Origin: an uncultured Desulfosarcina sp.
Lineage (GTDB): Bacteria > Desulfobacterota > Desulfobacteria > Desulfobacterales > Desulfosarcinaceae
Direction: 5' to 3'
DNA length: 64,000 nucleotides
Assembly (NCBI GenBank): GCA_963674945.2
Contig: CAXXWQ010000003.1
Location: 1,568,001-1,632,000, forward strand
Part shown: one piece after another, positions 33,720 through 54,106 of the stretch
Layout: each line of letters starts with the position of its first letter
How positions within the stretch are numbered: the first letter of the stretch is position 1
The notes under the pieces: model-generated
Database searches by the model: none
The model's input: the letters and a program-made list of their open reading frames with translations, nothing else
What the model was told of the DNA's origin: nothing
Position numbers and translations under genes: made by a program

Positions 33720-34163
33720 ATGAAGAAAATCGCCTTGGGCAGTGACCCCAATGCTGCCGGGTTAAAGGAAATACTGAAAAAGCGGATCACCGAACTGGGA
33801 TACGAGTGGGAAGACTATGGCAGTGATGATCCGATTTATGCCAATGTCGCCTTTGATGTAGCCCATGCGGTTGCATCCGGGAAGCATGAACGGGGGATCC
33901 TGATGTGCGGCACCGGTATCGGCATGTGCATCGCGGCCAACAAGGTTCCAGGGGTTCGAGCAGCATTGTGCTCTGACGTTTACTCCGCCGAGCGGGCTGT
34001 CAAAAGCAACAATGCAAACATTATGACGCTGGGCGAGCAGGTGACCGGGTCTGAGCTTGCGAAGTCCCTGGTGAAGGTTTGGCTGGAATCACGGTATGAA
34101 ACAGGGACGAGGTCGGAACCAAAGGTGAATCGGATTGATGAATACGATCAGGATCGAAAATAA
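33720..34163 (+). CDS. rpiB: RpiB/LacAB-family sugar-phosphate isomerase (ribose-5-P or erythrulose-4-P isomerase)
   Basis: IALGSD, GILMCGTGIGMCIAANKVPGVRAA, SNNAN; AAGGAG RBS. Confidence 0.85.
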   Translation: MKKIALGSDPNAAGLKEILKKRITELGYEWEDYGSDDPIYANVAFDVAHAVASGKHERGILMCGTGIGMCIAANKVPGVRAALCSDVYSAERAVKSNNANIMTLGEQVTGSELAKSLVKVWLESRYETGTRSEPKVNRIDEYDQDRK

Positions 34164-34189
34164 GGAATTGGCAATGTTGATTATTGCGG

Positions 34190-34382
34190 TAACAGCTTGT
34201 CCTTGGGACCGGGTGAGCAGGCGGAAAAGTCGGCGTCTATGCGGACCCTTGAAGCATTGTATAAGAAGCGGAAACGCGCTGGGGAACCAGCCCGATTCGA
34301 TCAAGTAACCTGTATTATCGATGACCGCATAGCAGCAGTTCCGGCGGATTTGGATGTCGATTCCGATAAAATTGTTAACCAT
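34190..34382 (-). pseudogene. Truncated DUF429-like RNase-H-fold nuclease gene ending the defence operon
   Basis: ATG 4 nt after the res stop; MVNNFIGIDIQIRRNCCYAVIDNTG..IESGW has the N-terminal hGhD pattern of this fold, then loses protein-like character after about 35 codons. Confidence 0.5.
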
Positions 34383-34386
34383 TTGA

Positions 34387-37300
34387 TTAGTGAACCATCG
34401 CGCTGAACAACTTACCAAGATAATGGTCCTTATCCTCACTCATAAACAGGACATGATTATCTTCAAATTCCTGGCTGGTCAGCCCCCATTCCAGCTCTTT
34501 TTGCTTGGTCAAGGAAAGAATAAAGCTGTTCAATATAACCGTCGGATCGCCAAGGCGTTTTTCGATCTCTTTGATAGTCTTATGAAATTCGATCTTCTTG
34601 CTCCCAGGCCCTTCCTGGCGAAGACCGTGGGGCTCTATAAAAGATATGTATTGTTTCTCGTTCTCAACCATCCACAAGATAAAATCCGGATAAAAGCTGC
34701 CAGCTTCAAAAAAGCCAACACCCTTACCCCTACTTAAATTGCGCAGCAGGTAAATTTCCTGGTCTTTTTCTTTAAATTGGGTTTCTCGATCCATGCAATA
34801 TTCATGAAGCGCCATGACAAATTTATACTCACTCTCATTTAGAGCCACGGGAGAGACCTTGATAGAGGATCCTTTGCTGATGTGAAAAAGAGGTTCATAT
34901 AAATGGGTGTCGAATCTATGCGCATGAATATGACCAATTTTTAACGGCTTATTTTGCGGCTTTTTCAAATCATCTCGTATATTCTGAATATCCTCAATTA
35001 GCTTTCTCTCCGAAGCATCGACGATGAATTGATAACCATCGGCTTCATCCGGAAAATTGTCGTCGGTCTTATCCAACTCTCGGATTTCAAGGCGGGGTTC
35101 GATAAAAGCCCGGTGGTTCAGGTCGTAGAAGCGGTCACAATAGCGTTTCATCAGCTCTGTGGCGATTTGTTGCCATAATGGCACATTGCCATAACGAGTG
35201 GCAGCCATATTATCTGATGGAATGAGCAGCGTATACCAATCGGACGCTTTTAATAGATCGAGGATTCCGGCTTTTGATATGTTCAGGTTGTGCCTTCCCC
35301 TGAGCCGCTTGTATTGTTCCAGTTCAAAAAACAGATCGTCTGTATTCAGAAAGCTGAGGTGGGTTTGGGTCAATACGGCCGTTTCCTTTGTGCTTTCCTG
35401 CTTTTTCCCCTTTGACTGAACTGTTTGAATGCGCGGATACCAATCAGATTCCACGTTGATTCGGGCATGAAGATCTTTTTGGTCACCAAGTGTCGGCACC
35501 GATCCATCATTTTTAAAGCTGTACTCCTGACCATCATCGCGCTTTTTCTTGGGTCGGACGATCTTCAGTTTTTTGCCGACTCCATAGGTAATATTAAGCG
35601 GAACCTTGAAGATTTCCTTTCGTTCGTTGCCGGGAAGCCCTTCTTCCTTGAGAAAATCTTTGAACCGTTGCATAAAATCCGCTTTGATCCCAAAAACATT
35701 CAGGCGTTCAAGGTCATCGATGTGCGCCGGCTTTTTGAAAATTCGTACGTGACCGCTCCGTTTCAGGCTCCAGTCGTAGCCTTTGAGGCGAACGCCCCTG
35801 CCGAACAACTGAATAATCTGAGCCCCTTCGCTTTTTCCCACATGCATCAACCCCATCGTGCTCACGCGCCAACAGTCCCACCCTTCAACGAATTTTTTTG
35901 ATCCGATGAGCACGTTAATGGGCGAGCTGGATTCATTGACCGTCGCGAACATCGCGCTTGAAAAATCGCTCTCGGCGATGCTGACATCAATGCGTGCTTT
36001 TTTCACATTTTTGCAAAGCCCAAGGGCATCTCCCACATTGATCAACCCAAAAGGCTCCTCGGCGGTCCCTACATACATCGCAATTTCACCACTATCGCCC
36101 TTGATGCGATCCAATCTCAGGCGTCCGCCACCCGGGCAATTAAAAAGCCGCAGCAAAATGTCACGATAGATGGTGCTGCCGGTTTCGGTGCCTGAGCTTA
36201 CCTGTTCGGTCAAATAAACAAAGGAACCTGAGAAAATGTCGTTTCCGTTTTCATCAAGCAATCCCGTATCTTTCCCGGCTTGGAAGATGATGTTTTCAAT
36301 GATTTGGGTAAAATCTTGGGGCTGTCCCAAAAAGTTGGACAAAAACTCAATTATTTTGGCCACATCGGAAGCAACGGTTTTCTCATCCTTGGAACCTGTG
36401 GCCTTGACCACGCTTGATCCGACAAATACCCAAAGCGGTTTTTCGATGTTAAAGGGAAGCAGTTCGGCTTTCTTTTGCTCGTAAATCCGTAGTTGCTGGT
36501 AAAACTTGAGCAGACAGGCAGTCAGATATGTAGCCTGGGCTTGTTTAAATCCTTTGCTCAGATTCAGGATATGATAGTCCTTGCCAAAGCCGTCTTCGTA
36601 AAACCAGCGGTAGGAGTAGTCAAACAGGGTACACCTGGCATAGCTGTTCTCGATCTTTTTATCTTTGGAAGCAGTCACCGACTGGGCGAAGGTGGCAGAA
36701 TATTCAATGGTGAAGCCCCTTTCACACAGCATATTGCGTCGGGTGAACCAGGCCCCTTCCTCCTTGCCGCTCATTCCACGATGCCCCTCGTCAACCAAAA
36801 GCAAGTTTTCTCCACCCAGGTTGCGCGTGGCTTCGGTATTGGGGCCGGCGCTGTCCGCCAGTTTGGTAATTTCCATTACGTCGACCCGTCTGAGTCGTGT
36901 ATCCGATGTCATAAAAAGGGCATCCCGACCCGGTATATAACGTTGGGCATGGATGCCGCTTTGGCGAAATTCCTTTAAATGCTGTTCACTCAGCCGCTCA
37001 TTAGGGGTCAGCAGGATCACCCGGGACAGCTCGCTTTCACGTCCTGCGCGTTTGGCATAATGCCTGAACTGGAGCAGATTAACGTGCATGATCAAGGTTT
37101 TGCCGCTGCCGGTGGCATTTTGAAAGCAAAGCTTGTTCAGGTCATCCAAGGCAAAAGGCTCAATATCCTCAAACGCATCCCAATGGTCATTGAATTGCTT
37201 TAGAAATCCATTCAGATCATCCAGCAAGGCAAGTGGATCAGTAAAATAACGGTCCAGATAGATTTCGGTGAATAGCAGCGTCAGCCATTGAAAGTATTTC

Positions 37301-37638
37301 CAGATCACGGGTCGGCTGCGTTTTTCGTTGATGGCAAGGGTGTGGCGACCGATGTTATCCTCGTAAATCCGCAGTTGCTCCCGAGTCATTACCGGCAGGG
37401 ATAAATCAAGGGCATTGGCCAGGTTGAAAAAAAATTTATGGGTATTGCTCGCGTCCATTCCCTCCAAAAGCGGGTCACGGATCGACTCGGCCAATATATG
37501 GAAGGGACGCATCTTTTTTCCGCCATCATCCTTGTACGCAACAAACGGATCGACGCCGAACAGGCTGATCAGCCACTGGTTCAGAATAAGCTTGTCTTTG
37601 AAATGATGCCGTTTGGGACCGTTTGATCGTTTTGCCAT
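34387..37638 (-). CDS. res: Type III restriction endonuclease Res subunit (SF2 helicase-like plus nuclease)
   Basis: NATGSGKT, LLVDEGH, EYSAT, EGWD, Q.FGRGVR, C-terminal FYPDFILW..FIEPHG PD-(D/E)xK-like motif. Confidence 0.9.
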   Translation of the reverse strand: MAKRSNGPKRHHFKDKLILNQWLISLFGVDPFVAYKDDGGKKMRPFHILAESIRDPLLEGMDASNTHKFFFNLANALDLSLPVMTREQLRIYEDNIGRHTLAINEKRSRPVIWKYFQWLTLLFTEIYLDRYFTDPLALLDDLNGFLKQFNDHWDAFEDIEPFALDDLNKLCFQNATGSGKTLIMHVNLLQFRHYAKRAGRESELSRVILLTPNERLSEQHLKEFRQSGIHAQRYIPGRDALFMTSDTRLRRVDVMEITKLADSAGPNTEATRNLGGENLLLVDEGHRGMSGKEEGAWFTRRNMLCERGFTIEYSATFAQSVTASKDKKIENSYARCTLFDYSYRWFYEDGFGKDYHILNLSKGFKQAQATYLTACLLKFYQQLRIYEQKKAELLPFNIEKPLWVFVGSSVVKATGSKDEKTVASDVAKIIEFLSNFLGQPQDFTQIIENIIFQAGKDTGLLDENGNDIFSGSFVYLTEQVSSGTETGSTIYRDILLRLFNCPGGGRLRLDRIKGDSGEIAMYVGTAEEPFGLINVGDALGLCKNVKKARIDVSIAESDFSSAMFATVNESSSPINVLIGSKKFVEGWDCWRVSTMGLMHVGKSEGAQIIQLFGRGVRLKGYDWSLKRSGHVRIFKKPAHIDDLERLNVFGIKADFMQRFKDFLKEEGLPGNERKEIFKVPLNITYGVGKKLKIVRPKKKRDDGQEYSFKNDGSVPTLGDQKDLHARINVESDWYPRIQTVQSKGKKQESTKETAVLTQTHLSFLNTDDLFFELEQYKRLRGRHNLNISKAGILDLLKASDWYTLLIPSDNMAATRYGNVPLWQQIATELMKRYCDRFYDLNHRAFIEPRLEIRELDKTDDNFPDEADGYQFIVDASERKLIEDIQNIRDDLKKPQNKPLKIGHIHAHRFDTHLYEPLFHISKGSSIKVSPVALNESEYKFVMALHEYCMDRETQFKEKDQEIYLLRNLSRGKGVGFFEAGSFYPDFILWMVENEKQYISFIEPHGLRQEGPGSKKIEFHKTIKEIEKRLGDPTVILNSFILSLTKQKELEWGLTSQEFEDNHVLFMSEDKDHYLGKLFSAMVH

Positions 37639-37641
37639 GCG

Positions 37642-38085
37642 TTAGGTATCCTGCGATTGAATCGCGTTTAGAACTTTTAACTTGAGCGCTTCGTTGTCTT
37701 CATCGCCGTTTATAATGGCACTGATAATTTCCTTGAGCAGCTCTTTATCAATATTTCCCGCCGCAACATGGTAGCTGATATTTTCCATTTCCCTGAGAAA
37801 CTTGGTGGCAATGAACACATAGCCGTTGTGGAGCAAAAACTGGGCACCCAAGGAAAGCGCCAACCGCTTGTTGCCGTCCTGAAAGCAATGAAATTTATTG
37901 GTACTGAAAAACAGATGGGTGAGTTTATCCTCGAAACTGGGGTAATAGTCGTCATTTTGAATGTGGGCTAAAACGCTTTCCAACTTGGCGAGGTCAAGAT
38001 GGCCAATAATACCGCCACCGCTGACCTCAACGGTCCGTTGATGCACGTCGATGGCCTGCTCGATGGTGAGATAGACAATCGCCAT
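37642..38085 (-). CDS. doc: Death-on-curing (Doc)-type Fic-fold toxin
   Basis: YLTIEQAIDVH, HCFQDGNKR motif; 147 aa. Confidence 0.88.
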   Translation of the reverse strand: MAIVYLTIEQAIDVHQRTVEVSGGGIIGHLDLAKLESVLAHIQNDDYYPSFEDKLTHLFFSTNKFHCFQDGNKRLALSLGAQFLLHNGYVFIATKFLREMENISYHVAAGNIDKELLKEIISAIINGDEDNEALKLKVLNAIQSQDT

Positions 38086-38088
38086 GGC

Positions 38089-39108
38089 TTACCGGTCCTT
38101 CAGCCGTTTCATCACATCCTGGGCGTCTTCGAGGCGTTCCTGCAACTCCTTGCTCTTTTCACCCAGGAAGCGTTCAAAATCCTCGGCCCGGATCGGTGCG
38201 ATATACTCCTCAAGCTGTTTATGCAGTGCATCTCGAAAAGCCAGGTCACGGCTGGCCATTTTGTTGCGTGCGCTTTCAACCAGAGGTTTCCAGAGGGGTT
38301 GAGATTCAAATTCTTCAAACAGCGCATCGACCTCCCATGAGTTCAGCTTGCGACCTTTCTTTTCCGATTCAGATCGAAGGGCATCGGCAAAGCCGTATTC
38401 ATAGGCGGCCACAAGGTCCAGGACTTCCGCGTAGAACGTGTCCCGCACCTTTTCCTTTTCCTTGAGTTTTAGTATTTTTCGGTATTCCTTGGCCTTTTCA
38501 CGAAAAATGCTGATATAAATTTTATCCGTATACAGGGGGTATTTGAAATTTCCCATATCTACGTAATTCTTTAAGGCATCCGTGAATTGCCGGCGATAAT
38601 TTTCGCCCTGAAACCATGCGATAAGAAATCCTTCATCGCGCTGGTTGATGTACTTTGTGCCACCACCGGTACGTTGATTGATGGTGTCGATAACGATGTC
38701 CAATATCATCTGGCGCAGCAACCGTGCTCGTTCACCCTCGGTAATCAGCATGGCCAGATTAAGGAATGCCCGAAAATCGAAAACGCCCAATTGAGGTGTT
38801 TTTATGTTAACGAAACCAATTTCGTTAACATCCTGCTCCGAAACTGCCTTTTTAAAATTTTTCAAACGGTTACCACGCAGTACCGCATAACCGTTCTGTC
38901 GCAGTTCATCTCCAAATTTTTCGATATAATTATCGATAGTCCGGGTTGTAACCTCGAAAAACGTTGCCACCTGCTCTTTGACAACCACGGTTTTTCCCTC
39001 AAAAGGGATGCCTTTGATGCGGGAAGCTTTCTCGATTTCCTGTAGGGCATAAGGATTATTGAGGATATTCTGCCGGTCCACCATCGAGTTGGTCAGGTCT
39101 TTGGCCAT
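38089..39108 (-). CDS. 339-aa putative DNA-binding protein / candidate Doc antitoxin
   Basis: Start MAKDLTNS 1 nt after the mod stop; HTH-like EQVATFFEVTTRTIDNY; C-terminal amphipathic helix ending VMKRLKDR; 3 nt before the doc start. Confidence 0.75.
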   Translation of the reverse strand: MAKDLTNSMVDRQNILNNPYALQEIEKASRIKGIPFEGKTVVVKEQVATFFEVTTRTIDNYIEKFGDELRQNGYAVLRGNRLKNFKKAVSEQDVNEIGFVNIKTPQLGVFDFRAFLNLAMLITEGERARLLRQMILDIVIDTINQRTGGGTKYINQRDEGFLIAWFQGENYRRQFTDALKNYVDMGNFKYPLYTDKIYISIFREKAKEYRKILKLKEKEKVRDTFYAEVLDLVAAYEYGFADALRSESEKKGRKLNSWEVDALFEEFESQPLWKPLVESARNKMASRDLAFRDALHKQLEEYIAPIRAEDFERFLGEKSKELQERLEDAQDVMKRLKDR

Positions 39109-39109
39109 C

Positions 39110-42100
39110 TTACACGTCCTCCACGTCCCACATCCGTTGCATGAAATCTTCCTCGATGAGACGGACCTTCCAGTTTTCCCCTTCCAGGCGAAGGTTGGGC
39201 AGGTTGTTGGAACCGTTGACGTAGATGGTATCATATTCAAAATCGCGCGGATTGATGCGGATAGTCTTGAACCATTCGTCCAGCATCAGGTTGTCTTTTT
39301 CCTGGTCTTCAGTCAGTTTTCGCCAGACAACCAGGATCTTTTCGTTTTTACCGTTATCTCCCGGCACCCAACCCTCTATTTTCCGGAACCACCACGGACC
39401 GTCAGGCGTCTGCTTGCGGCCGGCCATCTTCAAACGTGTATGCTTGTCATCCGGCAGTTCAGGGTCCGGCTCTCGATAGAACTCTGCGGAAAAGGCCTGG
39501 GGCGCGTCCATGTGCTCGACACGAAGCCCTATGAGATAATTGAACGTCTCGATCAGGTCCACATTGCGGACTTCATATTCGTCCGTGCCCGGTTTCTTTA
39601 CTTTGAGCTGATAGGCCGTGGGGTCGATAAAGCTATCGATATTCAGCAAACTTCGGCTCCCACGGGTTTCCGTCTCCAGCATATAGTGGAGCATGTATTC
39701 TTCGCGCAGTTCCTTGCTTTTGGCAATGGCTTTGGCGCGGGTTTCATCTTGATTGAATTCGAGGTTGTTTAGGCAGTCTTCGTAAGATTCGAGGCGCACG
39801 ATCTTCAAAAGTGCACTCACACTATCCTTCGAACGAGGTATACCAGACTTCCAGTCGCTCGCATAAAAAGCTTTGAGGACTCGAGGCTTCATTAGCCAGT
39901 CGAAATAATGCCCCATTTCGACCAAAAGGAACTTACGGACTCCCCCGTCTTCACGATTAGCCTGAATGACCGCATGGGCCGAACTTCCACTGCCACCAAA
40001 AAAGTCCGAAAACCAGCTATTGGGCTTGGTGGATTGTACAATGAACTTTTTTACGAATTTGGAGCTTTTGGGGGACAAGAATAGTCCTGATTCTCCGAAC
40101 ATGTTTCCAAGTTCTGCCTCGCCGTCATTGTATTCATAAAAAACGCTTGTTCCAATATTGGTTTCCACTTCGTGCAGGAAACCTTTAGTCCTTGGGACCT
40201 TCTTTTCGGCCTCACCCCAAGCAATTCTATTATCTGCCTGTAGTGATTCAAATGAACGGCGATTTTCTTTTTTTGGATCGGGTTTTTCAGGAAACTTCCA
40301 ACCACTCTGAGGGTGGGGGCAAGTTTTTTTTGTAACAGGATGAATTGGTTTATAATACCTATAGTTTGGGTGGTTCGGGTCCTTTGTGGTTGGTGATTGC
40401 TTGGAAGCAGGCGCACTCGTGGGGATTTCGCTCCATACCCATATATGAGCTGCATTTGCCTCTGCCTCTTCTTCGGGAACAAACCTACCATCAGAACCAC
40501 GGTACTCTGCTCTATTATAGGGATAAAGACCTCGCCAAGGATCCTGGCGTTTCGCCTGGGCATCCCACTCCTTGCCGTTGATCTCTACCTTTTCCCGGTA
40601 TTCCTGCTTGTGCCGCAAATACAATTCCTTGATTTCTCTTTCTATGTTAGCGATGGAGGGATAATCTGGGTTCAGTTTATTCACTAACTCCATAACTTCC
40701 GAGAATCCGGGTTTGGGTTCACGGAACATCTCTTTATCGGCTTCAACAGCAGCTCGATCCTTCGCGTAAACCTCCACATATTCGTGATTTGTTGAATAGT
40801 TTGGTAGCTGGCTATTTGCTGTAGCCTGAGTCCAGATAAGCTCTTCTATGTGGTTCTCATCTCCAAAAATCTCGTCCAGCGTATGTTCCAATAAAGTTCT
40901 TTCAGTTTTATCGATACTCACAAACAGCGCTCCGTCCTTGCGAAGAAGCGAGTAGCAGGCCCCAAGTCTGTCCCGCATCAGGGTTGCAAACGAAGAATGT
41001 TTATAGTTGTTTTTATAAGGAATAGAGCTACTGTTAGTATTATATGGAGGATCGATGTAGATAGATTTGATTTCTTCTCCGAATTGCTTCGCGGCGAGGT
41101 TGAGCGCGTGAAAATTATCGGAGTGCATCATCACGCCAGTGAGGCTACTGTCGAGGTTTTCTTGAGCAGCGAGGAGTTGTTCTTGGAAGTCACTTTGAAA
41201 TAGTGATGTATCGACCGGAAGCTTCAGATTTTTTCTTAAGAAGTCGATGTTCAGAGGTTCTGAATAGCCTTCAATCTTATCGATTGACAGGAGAGAAACC
41301 CACGCACGTCGTTGTTCATCGTTTGCGGCGATAGTCGGAAAGTGCTCTTCCGGGATCCTGTCTAATGAGATGCAAAAGTGGCTATCAACAACCATCTTCT
41401 TTTTCAACCAAAGTATTTTCTGGAAGTCCTCAAGCTGGGCAAGAAAATCGATCAGCTTGCTCGCGATCCTGCGCAGCACCTTGATTTTGAAAAGATAGCT
41501 TTGGACAGCGGGTGCTTTGGCATTTTCGATATCATCAAGGCGCATCACTTCGTTTTTAATGTAAAAGTTCAGTTCCCGACTCAGGAACCCGCTGAGGTCT
41601 TTATGGATAAAATAGTCCATTGTATTGCGGGCCGTATATTGGTTCACGTACTTGGCCAGTAGAGTACGATCTTTTTGCTTGTCGGTCGGGATCGGAACGT
41701 TTAACAGCCGGGCAAATTCAGCAGCGCCTTTCATTCCATCAAGGCAATTCAAAATCTTTTTCACCGCCTCATCCATCCGTTTGCGCTGCCATACTGCGTC
41801 CTGGCCGCTTTTCTTAGAATCGGGCCGGTATTCGAAACGGATGATCAATTCACCGTTTTCCAGACTAACGGGATTGTCTTCATGGAGGATAAAATAGCGT
41901 TTTTGGCCGTTGGCGGCCTTGATATTGCCGTGCTCGCCCTCCGTGGCATCGACAATGCGAAAATGAACCCGCATGGGAGACCCCGCCTGATGGACGGATA
42001 TCGGATCGATCTTTCCTTCGGCTTCCCTGGCCTTGCTCAGATCAAAGGTAAAGTCGGTGAAATATTCACTGGTCTTGATATAGTACTGATCCTTGTTGGC

Positions 42101-42580
42101 CCAGTGCAGATAGACCTCGCTGCCGTCATAAGGCACGGCGTAGGGGGCGGCTTTGCTGGCACTTTCCCGGGCATAGTAGCGTTTGGAGAGAAAATCGCCG
42201 TTGTCATAGTAGCGTTCGAAAAAACGATAAAGGTGATCGTAAATCTCTCCCTCGGCGGTGGCTGTGTCCATGGCCGACTCCCAGCGGGCCTTGGCTTCCT
42301 TGACCTTGGGAGCCTCCTCGGGTTTTTCCGCACCGTACTGGCGGGCGGTTTCGATCTCATCCAGATACGCCTTCTTCAGATCGGCCTGTTTTTCCGATGA
42401 CGTCTCGCCGAAAGCATCGGCGATAATCTGCAGTAGGTCCTCATCCAGAAATCGGCTGACCTCATCGGCCTTGGCGTGCATGATCCGGTAAAACCCGAAA
42501 TCCAAATCCGGTTGGTTTATCTGAAATAACTCTTTCAGAAGGGTCAAAAGCTTCTGGCGTTGTTGATCGACAGTGGGCAT
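39110..42580 (-). CDS. mod: Type III Mod subunit, beta-class amino-methyltransferase (probably m6A)
   Basis: DLDFGFYRI, NTMDYFIHKDL, motif IV IYIDPPYN preceding motif I DFFGGSGS, LESYED.LNN. Confidence 0.92.
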   Translation of the reverse strand: MPTVDQQRQKLLTLLKELFQINQPDLDFGFYRIMHAKADEVSRFLDEDLLQIIADAFGETSSEKQADLKKAYLDEIETARQYGAEKPEEAPKVKEAKARWESAMDTATAEGEIYDHLYRFFERYYDNGDFLSKRYYARESASKAAPYAVPYDGSEVYLHWANKDQYYIKTSEYFTDFTFDLSKAREAEGKIDPISVHQAGSPMRVHFRIVDATEGEHGNIKAANGQKRYFILHEDNPVSLENGELIIRFEYRPDSKKSGQDAVWQRKRMDEAVKKILNCLDGMKGAAEFARLLNVPIPTDKQKDRTLLAKYVNQYTARNTMDYFIHKDLSGFLSRELNFYIKNEVMRLDDIENAKAPAVQSYLFKIKVLRRIASKLIDFLAQLEDFQKILWLKKKMVVDSHFCISLDRIPEEHFPTIAANDEQRRAWVSLLSIDKIEGYSEPLNIDFLRKNLKLPVDTSLFQSDFQEQLLAAQENLDSSLTGVMMHSDNFHALNLAAKQFGEEIKSIYIDPPYNTNSSSIPYKNNYKHSSFATLMRDRLGACYSLLRKDGALFVSIDKTERTLLEHTLDEIFGDENHIEELIWTQATANSQLPNYSTNHEYVEVYAKDRAAVEADKEMFREPKPGFSEVMELVNKLNPDYPSIANIEREIKELYLRHKQEYREKVEINGKEWDAQAKRQDPWRGLYPYNRAEYRGSDGRFVPEEEAEANAAHIWVWSEIPTSAPASKQSPTTKDPNHPNYRYYKPIHPVTKKTCPHPQSGWKFPEKPDPKKENRRSFESLQADNRIAWGEAEKKVPRTKGFLHEVETNIGTSVFYEYNDGEAELGNMFGESGLFLSPKSSKFVKKFIVQSTKPNSWFSDFFGGSGSSAHAVIQANREDGGVRKFLLVEMGHYFDWLMKPRVLKAFYASDWKSGIPRSKDSVSALLKIVRLESYEDCLNNLEFNQDETRAKAIAKSKELREEYMLHYMLETETRGSRSLLNIDSFIDPTAYQLKVKKPGTDEYEVRNVDLIETFNYLIGLRVEHMDAPQAFSAEFYREPDPELPDDKHTRLKMAGRKQTPDGPWWFRKIEGWVPGDNGKNEKILVVWRKLTEDQEKDNLMLDEWFKTIRINPRDFEYDTIYVNGSNNLPNLRLEGENWKVRLIEEDFMQRMWDVEDV

Positions 42581-42602
42581 GTTTTATCTGCTTTCCTTTC
42601 GC

Positions 42603-45491
42603 TTACTGGACTCGCCAGCGGATGGTAAACAGGGTTTCAATTCGAGTTTTCTGCTGCATGCGCTGCTCCAGGGCATCGATCAGGCGATCTCGTTTTTCGG
42701 CGATTTCGTCTTCCACATCAAAAATTCGCTGGCGTAGGGAGCGCTTTTTTCCTTCCAATTTTCGAATCTGATCCTGAAAGGCGTACTGCTCCTGCATGGT
42801 CACCGCCATTCTGGCCTGACGGCCGGTCGCCCGGATTTGGGATTTAATGTCGTCCAGTTCCTTTTCCGCAGCCACCACCATGTCGTCGGCCCATTTTTCG
42901 AGCTGCTCTCGTGCCTCGTTGAAATGGCGGTTGTTGGTTTCCAGGGAACGGGAGATGGTGGCCCGCACATGGCGCTGGGCATCGGCATCCAGCCGTTCCT
43001 GAACCGCATGATCCGGGCTACCCGTTGGCGTTTGAGAAGCCCCACAGGCAAACAGACGTTGGCAAACCTCCTGGTCCAATGGCTGGCCATCATCCCTGAA
43101 GCCGGAAAACAATAGATACTCTTCACGGTCAAAAGAATCAATACACAGGCGTTGCAGGGTAAGCCAACCGTCACCACCCTTCAGCGCTTCCACCATGGCA
43201 ATACGGGTAGGATGATTGGAAATATTGAAAGTGACTTCTGCTGTGGGCGTGGGCAGCCGAGCACCGGTACGGATGACGTGGTCCCCCAATGGATGGCTGA
43301 GCCTGTAAAGAAATGCGCCAGGAATATTGGCCTTGGATTTGGAGATCAGATGATATCGGCCCGTGTCAACCACCGGCAACGGCGAATTATGCAGGTCGAA
43401 CCATAATTCTTGGTCATTGAATGCCGCGTGTGTTTCCAGCATGAAGCGGGTCAACTCCCAGAACATGCGGCCGACATGATCCAGTTGCTGCCGGGTTCCA
43501 TTCAAATTGACCTTCAGGCGGGCATGGACATCCTCGTCAAAATGTTCCAGCAAAATTCGACGAGTGTCGCTTAACCGGCTCTGGATCATTTCATCCAATT
43601 CTGTTTGCAAAACAGAAAAGGCGGCATCGATGGCCTCGGGGGTCCGGCATTGTTGATAAATCGCCAGAATGCGGCGCTCGAAATCGACACCGGACTCAAT
43701 CGTGCCCAGCACTTCATCCGACGCACCGAAAATTCCGGAAAACAGACTGAACTTTTCTTCCAGCAGCTCGTGAACGCGGCAATCGGCGGCGTTTCTTTGA
43801 TTGAGGAAATTGATCACCACCACATCGTGTTTTTGACCGTAGCGATGACATCTGCCGATACGCTGTTCAATCCGCTGGGGGTTCCAGGGCAAATCGAAAT
43901 TAATGACCAAAGAGCAGAATTGCAGGTTGATTCCTTCAGCAGCGGCTTCCGTTGCCAAAAGCACCTGGGCTGAATCGTGGAAGGTTTCAATAATGGCTGC
44001 GCGAACATCCACCGGCCGGGAACCGGAAATGCGACCCGTATTCCGGTTTTTATCCAGCCAACGGTTATAGATTTCGGTGGTATCCGGTTCGCGGTTTGTA
44101 CCGTTGAAGGTAAGCACCTTACCGGCATAGCCGTTGGATTCCAAAAAATCCTTCAGATAGGATTGGGTACGGCGGGATTCGGTAAACACCACCGCTTTCC
44201 GTGAACCTCCGATCTCCGTCATATTTAAAAAGCCAATTTCCAGAGCAGAGAGCAGCGATTTGGCTTTGGTGTCCACGCCGATACTGTTCGCCCACAAAAT
44301 GAAACGATCCAATTCCTCGATTTCTTCATTGAGCTTGTCGATGTCAATTTCCGTGGCTTCGTTTTCATCTACTGCTTCTTCGTTATCGACGATATCCCCA
44401 AGCTCCTCCTCATCCTCTAACAATTCGTCTAACAGATCATCGTCGATCTCCTCATCGCGAATAATCCGGTCGACGATACCGGCATTTTCCAAAAAATCGG
44501 ATTTAAGCCGCCGTAACCGGTCACGCATGATTTCGAGAGTTCCCGCAACAGCCCTCGGCGACGATGCAAGGACTTTTCGGACGATGAGCGTAATCAGGTG
44601 GCGTTGCCTTCTCGGCAAAGCGTAGCTCTCATCGCGCTGAAGAAATGATGAAATCGCCAGGTATAAGTTGTGTTCGTGATCGGAGGGTTTGAAACGACGT
44701 GTAATAAGCCTTCTTTCCGTATATTTGACGTATTCCAATACCTGGCTGCGCAACGTTCGTGAGCAGAAGGCCTGCAACCGCTCTCTCAAACCTTCAAGAT
44801 CCCCTCCCACATTGACGTATTGTGTCCGGAAGGATGGTAAATCGCCAAACAGGTTTTCGTCGATAATGGTGGAAAGACCAAAGAGTTCCAACAAGGAATT
44901 TTGAAGTGGCGTAGCTGTCAGGAGAATCTTGCGGCGGTTATGGAGAGCCCGTCGCAAGTTTTGACCCATCCGATTGCTTTCACGGTAAGTATTGCGAAGC
45001 TTGTGCGCTTCATCGATCACCACCAGATCCCAAGGAATGCATTGAAGCTCACTTGCCCGGCGACTGGCGTAATGGAATGAACAGATTACCAAGGCATTTG
45101 TATCAAACGGGTTGGGATTCCCATTCAAGCAGGCATTGCGGTAACTTTTTGCATCCAGCACCACAGAAGAAAGGTTGAATTTCTCCTTTATTTCCATCTC
45201 CCATTGTTTGCGCAATGAAGCAGGGCAGATGACCAGCAGCTTCCGGCGTCTTTCCGCCCAATACTGACAAAGAACCAAGCCGGCTTCGATGGTTTTTCCC
45301 AAACCCACTTCGTCAGCCAGGACAACACCTTTCGAAATAGGGGAACGCAGGGCGAACAACGCCGCTTCTATTTGATGTGGATTTAAATCCACGCAGGCAT
45401 CAAACAAGGAGCGGGAAAGTCGATCGACGCCTTGACCGCCATTTCGGGATAATTCGTGCGCAAAGTATTTTGCATGATAGTCGGTTATCAT
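42603..45491 (-). CDS. SNF2/RapA-like helicase-ATPase
   Basis: LADEVGLGKT, VVIDEAH, LLTATPLQN, EAAAEGINLQ, DLPWNPQRIEQRIGRCHR; acidic linker; C-terminal coiled coil; GAGG RBS before ATG 45491. Confidence 0.93.
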   Translation of the reverse strand: MITDYHAKYFAHELSRNGGQGVDRLSRSLFDACVDLNPHQIEAALFALRSPISKGVVLADEVGLGKTIEAGLVLCQYWAERRRKLLVICPASLRKQWEMEIKEKFNLSSVVLDAKSYRNACLNGNPNPFDTNALVICSFHYASRRASELQCIPWDLVVIDEAHKLRNTYRESNRMGQNLRRALHNRRKILLTATPLQNSLLELFGLSTIIDENLFGDLPSFRTQYVNVGGDLEGLRERLQAFCSRTLRSQVLEYVKYTERRLITRRFKPSDHEHNLYLAISSFLQRDESYALPRRQRHLITLIVRKVLASSPRAVAGTLEIMRDRLRRLKSDFLENAGIVDRIIRDEEIDDDLLDELLEDEEELGDIVDNEEAVDENEATEIDIDKLNEEIEELDRFILWANSIGVDTKAKSLLSALEIGFLNMTEIGGSRKAVVFTESRRTQSYLKDFLESNGYAGKVLTFNGTNREPDTTEIYNRWLDKNRNTGRISGSRPVDVRAAIIETFHDSAQVLLATEAAAEGINLQFCSLVINFDLPWNPQRIEQRIGRCHRYGQKHDVVVINFLNQRNAADCRVHELLEEKFSLFSGIFGASDEVLGTIESGVDFERRILAIYQQCRTPEAIDAAFSVLQTELDEMIQSRLSDTRRILLEHFDEDVHARLKVNLNGTRQQLDHVGRMFWELTRFMLETHAAFNDQELWFDLHNSPLPVVDTGRYHLISKSKANIPGAFLYRLSHPLGDHVIRTGARLPTPTAEVTFNISNHPTRIAMVEALKGGDGWLTLQRLCIDSFDREEYLLFSGFRDDGQPLDQEVCQRLFACGASQTPTGSPDHAVQERLDADAQRHVRATISRSLETNNRHFNEAREQLEKWADDMVVAAEKELDDIKSQIRATGRQARMAVTMQEQYAFQDQIRKLEGKKRSLRQRIFDVEDEIAEKRDRLIDALEQRMQQKTRIETLFTIRWRVQ

Positions 45492-45499
45492 TTGGCCTC

Positions 45500-45595
45500 G
45501 CAATATCCAAAAGCGTTTTCAAATCCCTATCGATAGATTGCCAATCCCGGTTTAAGTTGATGGTGTGGATCATCACCATATGACCATCCATGGTT
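45500..45595 (-). pseudogene. mcrC: 3' remnant of an McrC-like (type IV restriction) gene
   Basis: TMDGHMVMIHTINLNRDWQSIDRDLKTLL resembles the McrC C-terminus (E. coli, from memory: INGFDIGLCTVNLGQEWPCIHQELLDIF); abuts the SNF2 start. Confidence 0.65.
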
Positions 45596-46485
45596 TTACC
45601 ATAGAGGTGCAAAAGAACAGGTAACAGTATTAAAGAAGGTTGGATTTCTCATCCCCCGAGCCAACGTTCCGATTAATTGTAATACTTGGAAAAGTGAACG
45701 AATGTGCAAAACAAAATTTAGTATACAGCATTCCGGGTGTCAATCGTTGTTTACAATCGGGCCTAACGTTAACATCTATAATTCAAAGGAAATCGTTCAG
45801 ACTACCTTGGTCGTCATGTTTTCCTACACCCAGCCATATTATTTCCCTAACTCATGAATTTCCAAATTTGACAGCGCTGACTAAATCTGAGAATCACCGG
45901 TTGAGTATCGTTGTCGAGAAGACCAAATTCATCAAATTTATAGCGCGCTACACCCTTATAGTGAGATGGGGTCTATTTTTCCTCTCATTTTTTATACCCC
46001 CTACCCCCATTAGCATCGTCCTCATCGTCCAAACCATCTAATATTGCTCCATCAGTCAGTCTTGAAACAGTAATCCATACCATTCATATAATAGGTTCAT
46101 TCAGTTGCTCTCCGCCTATATTCAGAGGTGATTACTCAATCGGTTGTTTAGAGGATATTTTATAGTAAATTAGTGTAACCTGCAAATTCTCGATTGTCGG
46201 GTTCTCTCGGTGGAGATATTGATAAAAGACCCATAGCACAACAATTCATAGCCTATCATACAGGGCGGCTTGTCACCACGACAGGTCGCCTTTTTCATTT
46301 CCAAACACAAGGAGACCACTATGCCAAAATCCGTAGAGATGTAATAAGATTTTTTGGATTATTTTGTCCGTCTAAACCATTTATTGAAAGGCTCAACATT
46401 ATAGTCGTAAGCGGTTTATTAACCCCATCTTCACAAAATTGTTCAGGCATGGCAATGTGTTTCCCCAAAGAAAGGAGAAGATATC

Positions 46486-46815
46486 ATGCCTGAAGACTAT
46501 GATTCATTCGATTCCAAGCAAAGGCGAAAATTTTGGGAAAATCATATCGAGAAATGGAAGATCAGCAGCCTAAGCCAAAGGGCCTATTGTAAAAAAAACG
46601 ATCTCATTCTCCATCGGTTTTACGATTGGAAACGGCGCATCATGCCCGTTGATAAAACCCGAGTTACTTTTTTGCCGGTTGCGCTCAACGGATCAGCGAC
46701 GAGGAAACATCCATCCGTTCGTATTCATACCCCCAACGGATTTACCATCGAAGTCGATGATCAAAACGGATCGATAGAAATCAACAAGCTTGTTGCAATG
46801 GTGGCTACATTATGA
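46486..46815 (+). CDS. tnpA: IS66 accessory protein TnpA
   Basis: FW..HI..W..S.LSQRAYC......FY.WKRR, FLPV. Confidence 0.88.
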   Translation: MPEDYDSFDSKQRRKFWENHIEKWKISSLSQRAYCKKNDLILHRFYDWKRRIMPVDKTRVTFLPVALNGSATRKHPSVRIHTPNGFTIEVDDQNGSIEINKLVAMVATL

Positions 46816-47159
46816 TGTTGCCCACCAATCCCAAAAGGGTCTTTCTGGCCGTGGGTAATACCGATATGCGCAAATCGATCAACGGGCTTTCGGTTTTGGT
46901 GGAACAGGCCATGGATTTGAATCCCTTCGAAGGGGACCTGTTCGTCTTCTGCAATCGGCGTCGGAACATGATAAAAATTTTATACTGGGATAAAAATGGA
47001 TTTGCTCTCTGGCTCAAACGGCTGGAGAAGCACCGTTTCCACTGGCCAACAACCACAAAAGAAGTCGTTTCCCTTAGTGCGAAAGAACTGGAATGGCTTC
47101 TCGCCGGACTGGATTATACGAATGCTCATGTGCGTTTAAACTACCGTTATGCAAGCTGA
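46812..47159 (+). CDS. tnpB: IS66 accessory protein TnpB
   Basis: TDMRKSINGL, FVFCNRRR..IKILYWD.NGF.LW.KRLE. Confidence 0.95.
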   Translation: MMLPTNPKRVFLAVGNTDMRKSINGLSVLVEQAMDLNPFEGDLFVFCNRRRNMIKILYWDKNGFALWLKRLEKHRFHWPTTTKEVVSLSAKELEWLLAGLDYTNAHVRLNYRYAS

Positions 47160-47222
47160 GAACATCCACCTGGAAGTAAAATAAGTGTGTACAAATTCAA
47201 TTGGTTATGCTATGTATCAGGC

Positions 47223-48782
47223 ATGCTTTCGGAATCGAACAACCTGCCCGATGACGCCCAATCGCTTAAGGAGATTATCTCTTCTCAGCAGCAGCAAATC
47301 GACCATCTGCAAGAAATGGTACGTCTGCTGAAGAACGAGCTGTTCGGTCGCAAAAGTGAAGTTTTGCCGGCCGTCAATCCCAACCAACTCCAGTTGTTCA
47401 AACCCGACGAAACCGCAGAGCCCGTCCTTGCCGATGACGACATCACCGTCCCGGAGCACACCCGCAAAAAGCGTGGCCGCAAACCGTTGCCTGAGGATCT
47501 GCCCCGCGTCGAGGTCCTGCACGATATCCCTGAGGCCGAGAAACGGTGTGCTTGCGGAGTTGAACTGAGCCGTATCGGCGAAGAGACCTGTGAGAAGCTC
47601 GATTATATCCCGGCAAAAATCCAGGTGATCCGTCACATCCGCCCCAAATACGCCTGCAAGGCCTGCGAAGGCGTCGAGGATGACGGCCCCACCGTTAGGA
47701 TCGCTCCGCCGCCAGAACAACTGATTCCCAAGAGCAACGCCACTGAGGGACTGCTGGCCCACATCGCTGTCTCAAAATTCGCCGATGCGCTTCCCCTGCA
47801 TCGCCAACAAAAGATATTTGACCGTCTGGGCGTTGACATCTCACGGTCAACCATGGCCAATTGGATGATTCAGGCCGCCGGTTGCTGCCAGCCGATCGTC
47901 GAATTGATGCATCAGGAGATTCGAAGCGGTCCTGTGATCAATATCGATGAAAGTCCGTTTCAGGTGCTTCAGGAACCGGGCCGCAGCAATACAACAAAAT
48001 CGTATATGTGGGTGTTTTGTGGCGGCCCGTTGGATGCCCCTGTGGTGCTTTACCAGTATCATCCCACCCGTAGTGGGAAGGTAGTGCAAGATATGATAGA
48101 AGACTATTCGGGCTATGTTCAAAGCGACGGCTACAGCGGCTATGATCAGCTGTCCCAAAAGCAAGGGATCATCCATTTAGGTTGCCTGACCCATGCCCGA
48201 CGTAAATTTGTCGAGGTGAACAAAGGGCGCAAGGCGCGCGGCAAACAAAAAGCAGCCAAGGGGCTTGCCGACGAGGCGCTGGATTACATTGGCGCATTGT
48301 ATGGCATAGAACGGTATGCGCGAGACAAGGATTTGTCGTATGAACAGATCCGTGACCTGCGACAGGAAAAGGCCAAGCCGATTCTGAAACAATTTAAAAC
48401 CTGGCTGGACACCTACCATTGGCAAGCTCCTCCGAAAAGCCTTCTCGGCAAAGCGATCCAATATTGCCTAAACCAATGGGACAAACTGGTTGTCTATATC
48501 AATGCCGGATTTCTGAAGCCCGACAACAATGTGGCTGAAAATGTCATCCGGCCATTCGTGTTGGGTCGCAAGAACTGGCTGTTTTCCGGCGCGCCCCGGG
48601 GTGCGGAAGCCAGCGCCACCTTCTTCGGTTTGATCGAAACGGCCAAAGCCAATGGGCTGGAACCCTATGCCTATCTTCGATACCTGTTCGCCAAACTTCC
48701 GCTGGCCAGGACGCGGGAGGACCATCTGGCGCTTTTGCCAAAAAATATCGACAAACAGACGCTGGCGATCCTTCGCTATTGA
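47223..48782 (+). CDS. tnpC: IS66 DDE transposase TnpC
   Basis: LFGRKSE, GRKPLP..LPR, Zn-finger cysteines, IDES, QSDGY, CLTHARRKF, DNN.AE..IR, GRKNWLF. Confidence 0.96.
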   Translation: MLSESNNLPDDAQSLKEIISSQQQQIDHLQEMVRLLKNELFGRKSEVLPAVNPNQLQLFKPDETAEPVLADDDITVPEHTRKKRGRKPLPEDLPRVEVLHDIPEAEKRCACGVELSRIGEETCEKLDYIPAKIQVIRHIRPKYACKACEGVEDDGPTVRIAPPPEQLIPKSNATEGLLAHIAVSKFADALPLHRQQKIFDRLGVDISRSTMANWMIQAAGCCQPIVELMHQEIRSGPVINIDESPFQVLQEPGRSNTTKSYMWVFCGGPLDAPVVLYQYHPTRSGKVVQDMIEDYSGYVQSDGYSGYDQLSQKQGIIHLGCLTHARRKFVEVNKGRKARGKQKAAKGLADEALDYIGALYGIERYARDKDLSYEQIRDLRQEKAKPILKQFKTWLDTYHWQAPPKSLLGKAIQYCLNQWDKLVVYINAGFLKPDNNVAENVIRPFVLGRKNWLFSGAPRGAEASATFFGLIETAKANGLEPYAYLRYLFAKLPLARTREDHLALLPKNIDKQTLAILRY

Positions 48783-49626: not shown

Positions 49627-51165
49627 TTAGCCGAAAATCTCTTCGTATTTTTGTTCAATCGCTTGAATTTCACGGTCAGTTAGTTTTGCAAATTCCTTTT
49701 TTTGTCCGCGTTTTGAAAGCTTACCGCTATTTTGAGACAAGAAGCGAATGAGCAAGTCAACAAGATTATCAGGCATATCAATGTGGTTTTTAATGAATTC
49801 ATTTAGCAGGTCATATTTTTTTATATATTCCACCTCATCAGGAAGCGTTTTATTTACAGTTTCCTCAACGCATTCAAAGAAAAACTCAGCCTGTTTTGTT
49901 GCATCAAAATATCGATATAGATCGATGGTCTCGTTTAGAACCTCAACATTATTATTCTCTGTTGGTCGCCATTCAATCAGATCGAGGCGCGGTTTTGAGA
50001 AATGCTCAAGTATTTTACGGTATTCATCTATACGTTCCAAAATGACAGCAGATACGGGAAATATTAATCCTTTTGGAACAAAGTCTTTCTCAGCCAGAAC
50101 ATGGTGAAATAAATAACGGTGAATCCGGCCATTTCCATCTTCAAATGGATGGATAAATACAAAACCAAAAGCGATCAGTGTCGCGATTAGGACCGCATCG
50201 AAATCATCCTTGCAAAGAAGCTCATATGTTTCGATTAACCCGGTCATGAGCGCTTTTAAATCATCCGGCCTGGCAGAAATATGATCAGGCATTGGCATGC
50301 CTGAGCTACGATCATGTTCTCCAACAAAACCGCCTTCCATGCGTATCCCTGGCTCAATAAAACGATTGTCTGCGATAACAATTCCTTGCAGATATTCCAG
50401 TTCAGGAATGTTGAGCTTACGCTGCCCGGCTTCGCCAATTATTCTTCCCCATCGTTCGATCCGGCTGTGAGGCGGGGTTTCCCCTTCAATCGTATAAGAT
50501 GCCTTGGAATCCTCAAACAGCAAAAAAGCCGAAGCGCGGCTCAGTAGAACGGGATGGGTCTGGCCAATATTTTTTATGGCTGTTTCGGATAGTTTCTTGC
50601 CTATATATTGCTCAAGCTTTTTTGTTTTTCGGATCAAAGGGCAAAAATCGCGCGTTCCCGGCAAATTGTTGCGAACCCGATGGCGTTTAGACGGATATGA
50701 TTTCCCTTCATATTGTAGTTTGCTGTTAACGAGAGGAACAAAATTTCCTGCCTGCGCATCTTCAATATCAAGGTGTTGCCCACGTAGCCATTCCCACAAA
50801 AACCATAATTTGCGGCTATACATTCCGGTAGGCTCTGAGCGGATGATTTTCTCAATATCTATGGCTTCAATATCTTGAAACAAGGTATTGAGGACCGCCA
50901 GGTCAATGCCCTCATACTTAAGCGCAAAGGTCAAATGCCCATATAACGTGTCTTCAGGCCTGTGGCGCGGTGTAAAGATATGCCAGCGCTCATAATCGTA
51001 TTTTTTATGTTTCGTCCCAATGGCACAGAGATAGTCCGGCATCGGAACTTTCAGATCATGAGCCTGAATTAGCGCGGAATATCCAGCCAAACGGGCTCCC
51101 TCTTCCAACGCCGGGAAGCCATGAAAAACAGTTACATTCTGTGAAAATTGATTATAGATCGCCAT
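49627..51165 (-). CDS. Large Fic-family protein (AMPylase-type motif, intramolecular inhibitory motif)
   Basis: HPFEDGNGRIHR canonical motif; SYTIEG fits (S/T)xxxE(G/N) N-terminal to it. Confidence 0.9.
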   Translation of the reverse strand: MAIYNQFSQNVTVFHGFPALEEGARLAGYSALIQAHDLKVPMPDYLCAIGTKHKKYDYERWHIFTPRHRPEDTLYGHLTFALKYEGIDLAVLNTLFQDIEAIDIEKIIRSEPTGMYSRKLWFLWEWLRGQHLDIEDAQAGNFVPLVNSKLQYEGKSYPSKRHRVRNNLPGTRDFCPLIRKTKKLEQYIGKKLSETAIKNIGQTHPVLLSRASAFLLFEDSKASYTIEGETPPHSRIERWGRIIGEAGQRKLNIPELEYLQGIVIADNRFIEPGIRMEGGFVGEHDRSSGMPMPDHISARPDDLKALMTGLIETYELLCKDDFDAVLIATLIAFGFVFIHPFEDGNGRIHRYLFHHVLAEKDFVPKGLIFPVSAVILERIDEYRKILEHFSKPRLDLIEWRPTENNNVEVLNETIDLYRYFDATKQAEFFFECVEETVNKTLPDEVEYIKKYDLLNEFIKNHIDMPDNLVDLLIRFLSQNSGKLSKRGQKKEFAKLTDREIQAIEQKYEEIFG

Positions 51166-51502
51166 ATTTGTGAATTCCAATTTTAATTGCGTGGATTATT
51201 ATCACATGAAAAATGATTATTGTCTATGAATACCGATTAAATATTATGTTTTTATATGAAAAATAGTTTTTTGCATGAGGTCTTACCGTTTGCGAAGATT
51301 GTTTTTGTGCCCACCGTTACCAGGGCAGGATTTTTATCTTGGAGCCCTCTGAGACGTGATATAGGATAAAGTTGCGTATCAGGTCGAGGAACCGTTTTTT
51401 TCAAAGATGTTGTTATAGAAGGACATCTTGAACCGTAGGTTCTGAAAATGCCGAAAACGCCGGTGTGGAGAAAAACGAAAATGGAAAAAGGTGTACCAAT
51501 TT

Positions 51503-54029: not shown

Positions 54030-54106
<77 letters not shown>

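Follow-up and report, generated by a model that had tools for sequence, protein, structure and literature searches.

A Doc toxin and a large partner with a predicted DdrC-like body form a mobile two-gene module that may respond to DNA breaks

Two genes lie between mod and res of a type III restriction-modification (RM) operon in an uncultured Desulfosarcina sp., one encoding a Doc-family toxin and the other a much larger protein (hereafter, the partner), and their position raises the question of whether they guard this RM system or form a unit of their own. The window analyzed here is a stretch of 64,000 nucleotides. On its minus strand the operon runs SNF2 helicase (DrmD-like, 966 aa; 42603..45503; NF038318 DrmD_b, 662.6 bits, under the cut-off of 950), type III mod (1156 aa; 39110..42580; PADLOC MTase_III, E 1e-177), the partner gene (339 aa; 38089..39108), doc (147 aa; 37642..38085) and type III res (1083 aa; 34387..37638; PADLOC REase_III, E 7.4e-179). 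The spacers are 1 nt (mod/partner), 3 nt (partner/doc) and 3 nt (doc/res), and these coordinates, together with the length and C-terminal end of the partner, agree with the original prediction made from this DNA. The partner starts at the ATG at 39108; an in-frame TTG upstream, at 39240, overlaps mod, and both the homologs and the PADLOC model begin at the ATG, not at the TTG. Between mod, partner, doc and res there is no room for a small antitoxin ORF, as had been noted. The partner is single-copy in the source genome.

As a type III variant the host operon lacks DUF4391, which many related loci carry in the order SNF2-DUF4391-Mod-Res. An assignment to DISARM class I, for which DrmD must occur with DrmA, DrmB, DrmC and DrmMI, was rejected: the SNF2 protein scores below the DrmD cut-offs, and the operon comprises SNF2, Mod, the pair and Res only. 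The GC content of the operon is 46-50% vs about 54% around it, and the stretch adjoins transposase-like genes and a tRNA-Met gene (54030-54106) that may mark the edge of an island. A 517-aa ORF (49627-51180) lies some 4 kb upstream of the operon, flanked by transposase-like genes; from its HPFEDGNGR motif we take it to be a Fic protein. Also nearby are a three-gene element (46486-48782), presumably IS66-like, and a second gene that we take to be transposase-like (51679-53934). A scan of 34000-46200 for promoters and terminators gave counts near the shuffled expectation (17 vs 13.6 and 18 vs 14.3) and was uninformative.

The toxin is of the Doc type, as had been predicted. It scores 44.8 bits on TIGR01550 DOC_P1 (cut-off 38.65), P1 Doc and E. 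faecalis Doc match it at E 2.6e-5, and its catalytic motif, HCFQDGNKR (residues 66-74; 37864..37890, minus strand), conforms to the family motif HXFX(D/N)(A/G)NKR described in PMC13034048. Among aligned homologs, H66, D70, G71, N72 and K73 are found in 68/68 and R74 in 67/68. E. coli Doc is reported to phosphorylate EF-Tu (PMC10440598, PMC9207808), and by analogy with the family the window Doc is predicted to be a toxic EF-Tu kinase that arrests translation. An extra conserved C-terminal segment of about 20 residues (37642-37710) has no counterpart in ordinary Docs; E132 occurs in it in 68/68 homologs, L134 and L136 are also conserved, and it may contact partner residues 275-305.

The adjacent genes match, at near full profile length, PADLOC PDC-M59A (E 9.6e-103; partner residues 3-338 on profile positions 2-334/338) and PDC-M59B (E 3.5e-38), so the pair is a catalogued candidate. 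PDC-M59 is a phage defence candidate of PADLOC-DB 2.0, from the PDC set of Payne et al. (10.1101/2024.01.29.577857), which consists of predicted candidates. It is not named in the main text of that paper; the supplementary tables may annotate it. In the literature searched we found no published test or characterization of PDC-M59 or of its mechanism, fold or tail. Nor did the literature searched on PDC-S13 and on Doc in anti-phage defence with RhuM and ORF6N yield a characterization of the pair, and the main text on DefensePredictor holds none. As far as the consulted part of a cold-seep study goes, PDC-M59 is not among the eight candidates tested there (10.1101/2024.09.26.614923). The original prediction had called the arrangement uncharacterized, which holds for the print record searched, while the pair itself already had a name. 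Of the grounds for refutation listed there, a match to a described system therefore applies by half, the named system being a predicted candidate.

Relatives of the partner are numerous (at least 7,892 among 8,000 scored candidates). A scan of species genomes confirmed 482, of which the best 80 were kept, and the sample therefore leans to close relatives. In these best 80 of 482, doc lies directly downstream of the partner at 76 loci; of the four doc-less loci, two stop at contig ends, one has a NUDIX gene next and one has res next. The same coupling is seen in viral loci (45 examined, including two at contig ends and three with truncated partners), where doc follows all 40 full-length partners with downstream sequence and none of the three broken ones. 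In a class sample of 301 genomes, doc accompanies 8/8 other full-length partners and 0/6 broken partners.

The genomic contexts of the pair are diverse. Among the best 80 of 482 relatives, the site is between mod and res in 17 (one of these without doc), within a type I RM operon in 6 and within a BREX-like operon in 2. A further 18 have an RM gene on one side, no more than three genes away, 25 have none and 12 loci are too short. The embedding seen in the window thus recurs: an RM or BREX operon encloses 25/80 loci (best 80 of 482), in many cases with spacers of a few bases. By raw count, 25 of the 68 informative loci in the same best 80 of 482 lack an RM or BREX gene up to three genes away. 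The partner keeps 70-80% identity whether it sits in a type III, type I or BREX operon or at a non-RM site (best 80 of 482); the neighboring Mods are mostly about 30% like the window Mod, over short stretches. The pair also occurs in prophages, and in the Streptococcus satellite Javan319 (L093:7245-8705) it sits between the repressor and the integrase, with doc unannotated. The label "CiaB protein" carried by streptococcal satellite partners was discarded, as no family scan supports it. We conclude that the partner and doc form a conserved, widespread mobile two-gene module.

Inspection of related res loci bears on the original proposal of a dedicated guard for this type III system. The window Res type occurs in 23 of 301 genomes of the host class. 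At 23 other res places, mod is directly upstream in 10, the pair in 1 and another gene in 6 (L326, L329, L331, L339, L340, L344; RhuM/PDC-S05 twice, a HEC-01-like gene once), and 6 are uninformative. Because 1/17 informative loci has the pair and the others have mod or different genes, the slot before res is a hotspot for accessory genes, where the pair is an optional passenger, and this is evidence against a PrrC-like guard of this Mod/Res. A partner that watches the Mod/Res complex would fit the 17/80 loci between mod and res (best 80 of 482) and also P0243, a 639-aa homolog in which a C5 cytosine methyltransferase is fused to a complete partner, tail included. Against this, the same protein is found at type I (6), BREX (2) and non-RM loci (25) in the best 80 of 482, beside Mods that mostly bear little likeness to the window Mod, and 16/17 informative res loci do without it; PrrC itself is found almost exclusively with type I RM (Payne et al., 10.1101/2024.01.29.577857). 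A module that moves among type III, type I, BREX, phage satellite and non-RM sites makes such a guard very improbable, and this part of the original prediction is not upheld.

The partner ends in a helix (residues 308-339; 38089..38187, minus strand; residues 308-338 in the model) with the motif V-x-x-R-L-K-D at its end. The recurrent stretch is the last ~10 residues. The motif was counted for distinct Docs having 200 bp or more of upstream sequence, with a pattern written after seeing the sequences; it is present in 157/166 partners and also ends the upstream ORFs of 12/13 close sister Docs that have no large partner (about five lineages, not independent) and of 0/36 distant Docs (one shattered partner, L163, being counted among these). 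Elsewhere it occurs at 10 of 23,585 other ORF ends, nine of which are the same sister-Doc upstream ORFs. The motif-bearing ORFs before partner-less sister Docs encode 42-70 aa or, once, a 287-aa repeat protein; the small antitoxins of distant Docs end in other motifs. In a quick tree of 84 Docs, those with a large partner and those with a mini-antitoxin share one branch (SH-aLRT 96). Mini toxin-antitoxin (TA) pairs with the same tail are borne by prophages (L202-L218, e.g., L203:4786-5468 and L212:4102-5609); their Docs often have long C-terminal extensions, and their small ORFs have no Pfam family.

Phage proteins of 249-280 aa match partner residues 5-244 (HHalign 99.65%, 218 columns) and stop before the tail region, and no doc was found within 2.5 kb at 10 loci of these tail-less homologs. 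At two loci (L127 and L201, where sequence errors are possible) an intact doc stands behind a partner reduced to its tail-bearing part. Given this distribution across sister-Doc ORFs, tail-less and doc-less homologs, broken partners and tail-bearing fragments, we read the tail as a portable neutralizing element, and the last helix is likely Phd-C-like and blocks Doc. Such elements have precedents: Phd is described as neutralizing through its C-terminal helix (PMC9207808), and in PanA-PhdC/Doc the C-terminal Phd-C helices on a Panacea body are reported to neutralize Doc, the tail fused to SUMO being sufficient (PMC10440598). The tail had already been proposed as a Doc blocker in the original prediction, and the mini-antitoxins of sister Docs and the PanA precedent strengthen that proposal. 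What is new here is the portable tail motif common to the partner and to unrelated ORFs before sister Docs.

The body of the partner is less easily placed. Compared with Pfam and NCBIfam, the partner has no family above cut-off and no Phd/YefM, AbrB or Panacea match. Its N-terminal domain (residues ~26-147; 38668..39033, minus strand) is predicted to be an ORF6N/KilA-N-like winged helix resembling the N-domain of DdrC and the Dachshund/Ski domains. Partner relatives match PF10543 ORF6N (best E 2e-8; atlas 0.92); the window partner itself has no match, one phage homolog is above the cut-off and several partners fall at 1e-5 to 0.07. BFVD neighbors include KilA-N and antirepressor rows, and the proteins closest in sequence are ORF6N proteins from phages that carry the annotation of transcriptional regulators. 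These relatives and the predicted fold lend support to the DNA-binding body that had been proposed, and we infer that the body binds DNA.

RhuM was rejected as a family label since there is no Pfam hit and HHalign gives 2% to a neighboring RhuM; to judge from the sequences, kinship to RhuM/PDC-S05 is at most remote. PDC-S13 is weakly matched by 44/71 members of the partner alignment (best E 7.5e-9; window C-domain E 0.0013) and PDC-S22 by 17/71, so these single-gene candidates may share the C-terminal domain described below. The weak PDC-S05 and PDC-S13 matches among partner homologs would suit a reading with no TA pair at all, in which Doc is a kinase of low toxicity that modifies either the partner or something else, and the effector is the partner, much like RhuM, which occupies the same mod-res slot in relatives and is reported to defend alone (PDC-S05; 10.1101/2024.09.26.614923). 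The poor direct RhuM comparison speaks against this reading, as does a tail that tracks Doc across unrelated upstream proteins, and we give it as little credence as the guard.

In its predicted fold the partner body (residues ~26-275) is a match to Deinococcus DdrC in both domains, a likeness that is new here. For the AlphaFold model of the whole partner (pLDDT 78, pTM 0.46), DdrC is the best PDB match in Foldseek (E 1.6e-3, thus above 0.001), and in VIA it is the sole chain among 48,161 with Z>=8 (Z 10.1, 197 residues aligned in order, model 27-305 on chain 9-228, rmsd 15.6 A; next unrelated chain 5.9). The signal is clearest in the C-terminal helical domain (residues 151-275; 38284..38658, minus strand), to which the model, Foldseek, VIA and conservation assign a predicted DdrC-CTD fold. 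Residues 150-275 folded alone reach pLDDT 91.6 and pTM 0.84, and the top five Foldseek rows are all DdrC (TMq 0.59-0.67; in the best rows TMq 0.65-0.67 and rmsd 2.6-2.7 A; E 0.034, also above 0.001; next unrelated row E 2.6). VIA gives Z 12.9 among Foldseek's 122 candidates (rmsd 2.4 A, 111 aligned) and, in the wide search of 48,161 chains, Z 10.4 for DdrC vs 6.2 for the next (rmsd 2.4-3.1 A over the C-domain comparisons), values within the range rated uncertain for helical bundles, where a Z under about 13 possibly reflects a common helical arrangement. The N-domain alone is a weak match to the DdrC NTD (8u1j; Z 6.2, rmsd 3.6 A, 90 aligned).

Sequence comparison gives no match to DdrC at E<=10 (partner protein and three shallow profiles vs solved structures), and a search of solved structures by sequence and profile returned nothing meaningful, DdrC included. 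DdrC and the partner are 11-17% identical, and the partner differs in having about 65 extra C-terminal residues and a coupled toxin; both have the same domain order in the model, a Dachshund-like winged helix followed by a helical bundle. We find the match persuasive because the two domains match separately and in order, and because the other neighbors of the partner N-domain, Dachshund and Ski, are those reported for the N-domain of DdrC (PMC9303277). No published link between DdrC and phage defence or toxin-antitoxin systems was found in the literature searched.

DdrC, an asymmetric domain-swapped dimer, is described as using a conformational switch to bind nicks or ends in pairs, with R128, R142, R164 and K170 of its CTD as core DNA-binding residues (PMC11347143). 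In 71 aligned partner rows, K or R stands at R172 in 87%, at K189 in 80%, at R210 in 97% and at R222 in 94%, and by their order and the range offsets of the structural match R172, K189, R210 and nearby basic residues are plausible counterparts of the four DdrC residues. The nick-specific residues of DdrC, R14 and R81, lie in the N-domain, where the match is weak, and no counterparts were assigned to them. On the predicted fold, the partner probably dimerizes on DNA as DdrC does. Tail-less, doc-less ORF6N proteins of large phages (L294-L318) share both partner domains, and by extension from their sequences this family is possibly DdrC-like as well.

The conservation of the body informs the choice of trigger. 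Mean column identity over the same 68 loci is 77% for the partner vs 64% for the toxin, and identity over the whole body stays at 70-80% in many phyla among the best 80 of 482 species-genome relatives. Since conservation is higher in the partner than in the toxin, and since the partner is often found in operons without promoter room, it fits a fixed ligand better than an operator. The DdrC-like fold, absent from the original prediction, suggests DNA breaks as the likeliest signal. Breaks are favored because the sole characterized structural relative is a break sensor and the body outlasts the toxin in conservation, and also because embedded copies lack an operator of their own and the module favors nuclease operons of any type.

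A close rival is passive release after antitoxin decay, since the closest sequence relatives of the partner are annotated as regulators. The pair would then be an ordinary type II TA system with an unusually large antitoxin, in which the tail blocks Doc and the body is a repressor or a passive DNA anchor; element loss or host shut-off would let the antitoxin decay and free Doc, giving addiction or non-specific abortive infection. The ORF6N/antirepressor-type relatives, the sister loci that manage with tail-only mini-antitoxins and the carriage of the pair by satellites and prophages all agree with it. It sits less well with a body that is better kept than the toxin across many phyla (best 80 of 482) and with the 25/80 loci (best 80 of 482) inside RM/BREX operons, where few-base gaps often leave no operator of its own. 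We regard this reading as possible, if rather doubtful.

Unlikely, in our view, is a sensor-antitoxin triggered by a phage protein instead of breaks, whether a DNA mimic or a body homolog from the phage that forms mixed dimers. Phages do encode tail-less body homologs, DNA mimics could target a DNA-binding surface, and Panacea bodies have been proposed as sensors (PMC10440598). Against such a trigger stands the narrow range of large phages from which the tail-less homologs were recovered (55-81% alike), whereas the pair is spread over many phyla.

We therefore return to DNA breaks and, at less than even confidence, tentatively favor a type II TA pair whose antitoxin is a DNA-bound, DdrC-like sensor, most likely of breaks. 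In the proposed mechanism the partner and doc are inherited together and, as the loci surveyed show, have entered RM and BREX operons as well as satellites and other locations. Doc, with its intact kinase-type motif, would stop translation as its family does, and the partner tail would bind and block Doc as Phd-C does; on the tail motif distribution and the family analogies, these two steps taken together are probably right. The body would dimerize on DNA like DdrC. Breaks made by phage nucleases or by overrunning restriction would then switch the dimer and free Doc, leading to dormancy or abortive infection as a back-up layer. This break trigger is the least supported step and, though conceivable, stands at somewhat below even chances. 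The pair may thus arrest growth when the DNA of the cell is cut. The broadest form of the proposal is a little more doubtful again, namely that PDC-M59 is a DNA-break-triggered TA defence in which a DdrC-fold dimer frees Doc, and that DdrC was domesticated from a large family carried by phages and islands.

A catalogue entry found in thousands of protein clusters would in this way gain a concrete mechanism. If the body senses breaks, the pair would provide a direct route from a DNA lesion to a translation-arrest toxin via a conformational sensor, without an SOS or protease relay, and this would explain why the module settles in all kinds of nuclease operon. Irrespective of the trigger, the match in fold suggests widespread relatives of DdrC on mobile elements, though DdrC is said to have no homologs outside Deinococcus (PMC11347143). 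The tail, for its part, is likely a short Doc-neutralizing motif grafted onto unrelated bodies.

Of the known systems, PDC-M59 has the same composition as the window pair, with both genes at full length. Phd-Doc of phage P1, Salmonella and E. faecalis resembles the pair in its Doc motif and family score and in an upstream antitoxin gene with a C-terminal helix. It differs in that the 339-aa window partner has ORF6N-like and DdrC-like domains and no Phd/YefM or AbrB domain, in contrast to the small upstream antitoxin of those types in Phd-Doc, and in that the window Doc has about 20 extra conserved C-terminal residues. PanA(Phd-C)-Doc of Corynebacterium doosanense shares a globular body with C-terminal helices, helices that alone are reported to neutralize Doc, on a body proposed to be sensory (PMC10440598); the window body, with no Pfam hit, is not Panacea. 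PrrC in EcoprrI is likewise a toxin gene nested in an RM operon and is controlled by type I RM, whereas the window pair brings its own likely antitoxin, moves among unrelated hosts and has no near-exclusive link to one RM type. PDC-S23, whose models match RhuM proteins at the N end and Doc at the C end, likewise joins Doc to a DNA-binding body and is found in that operon slot; both PDC-S23 and PDC-S05 differ in being single genes, with at most remote kinship to the window partner. Shedu offers a precedent for DNA-end sensing in defence and is described as a nuclease, not a TA pair (10.1101/2023.08.10.552762). Taken together, the pair likely works like a Phd-C/Doc type II TA system but is not a member of Phd-Doc.
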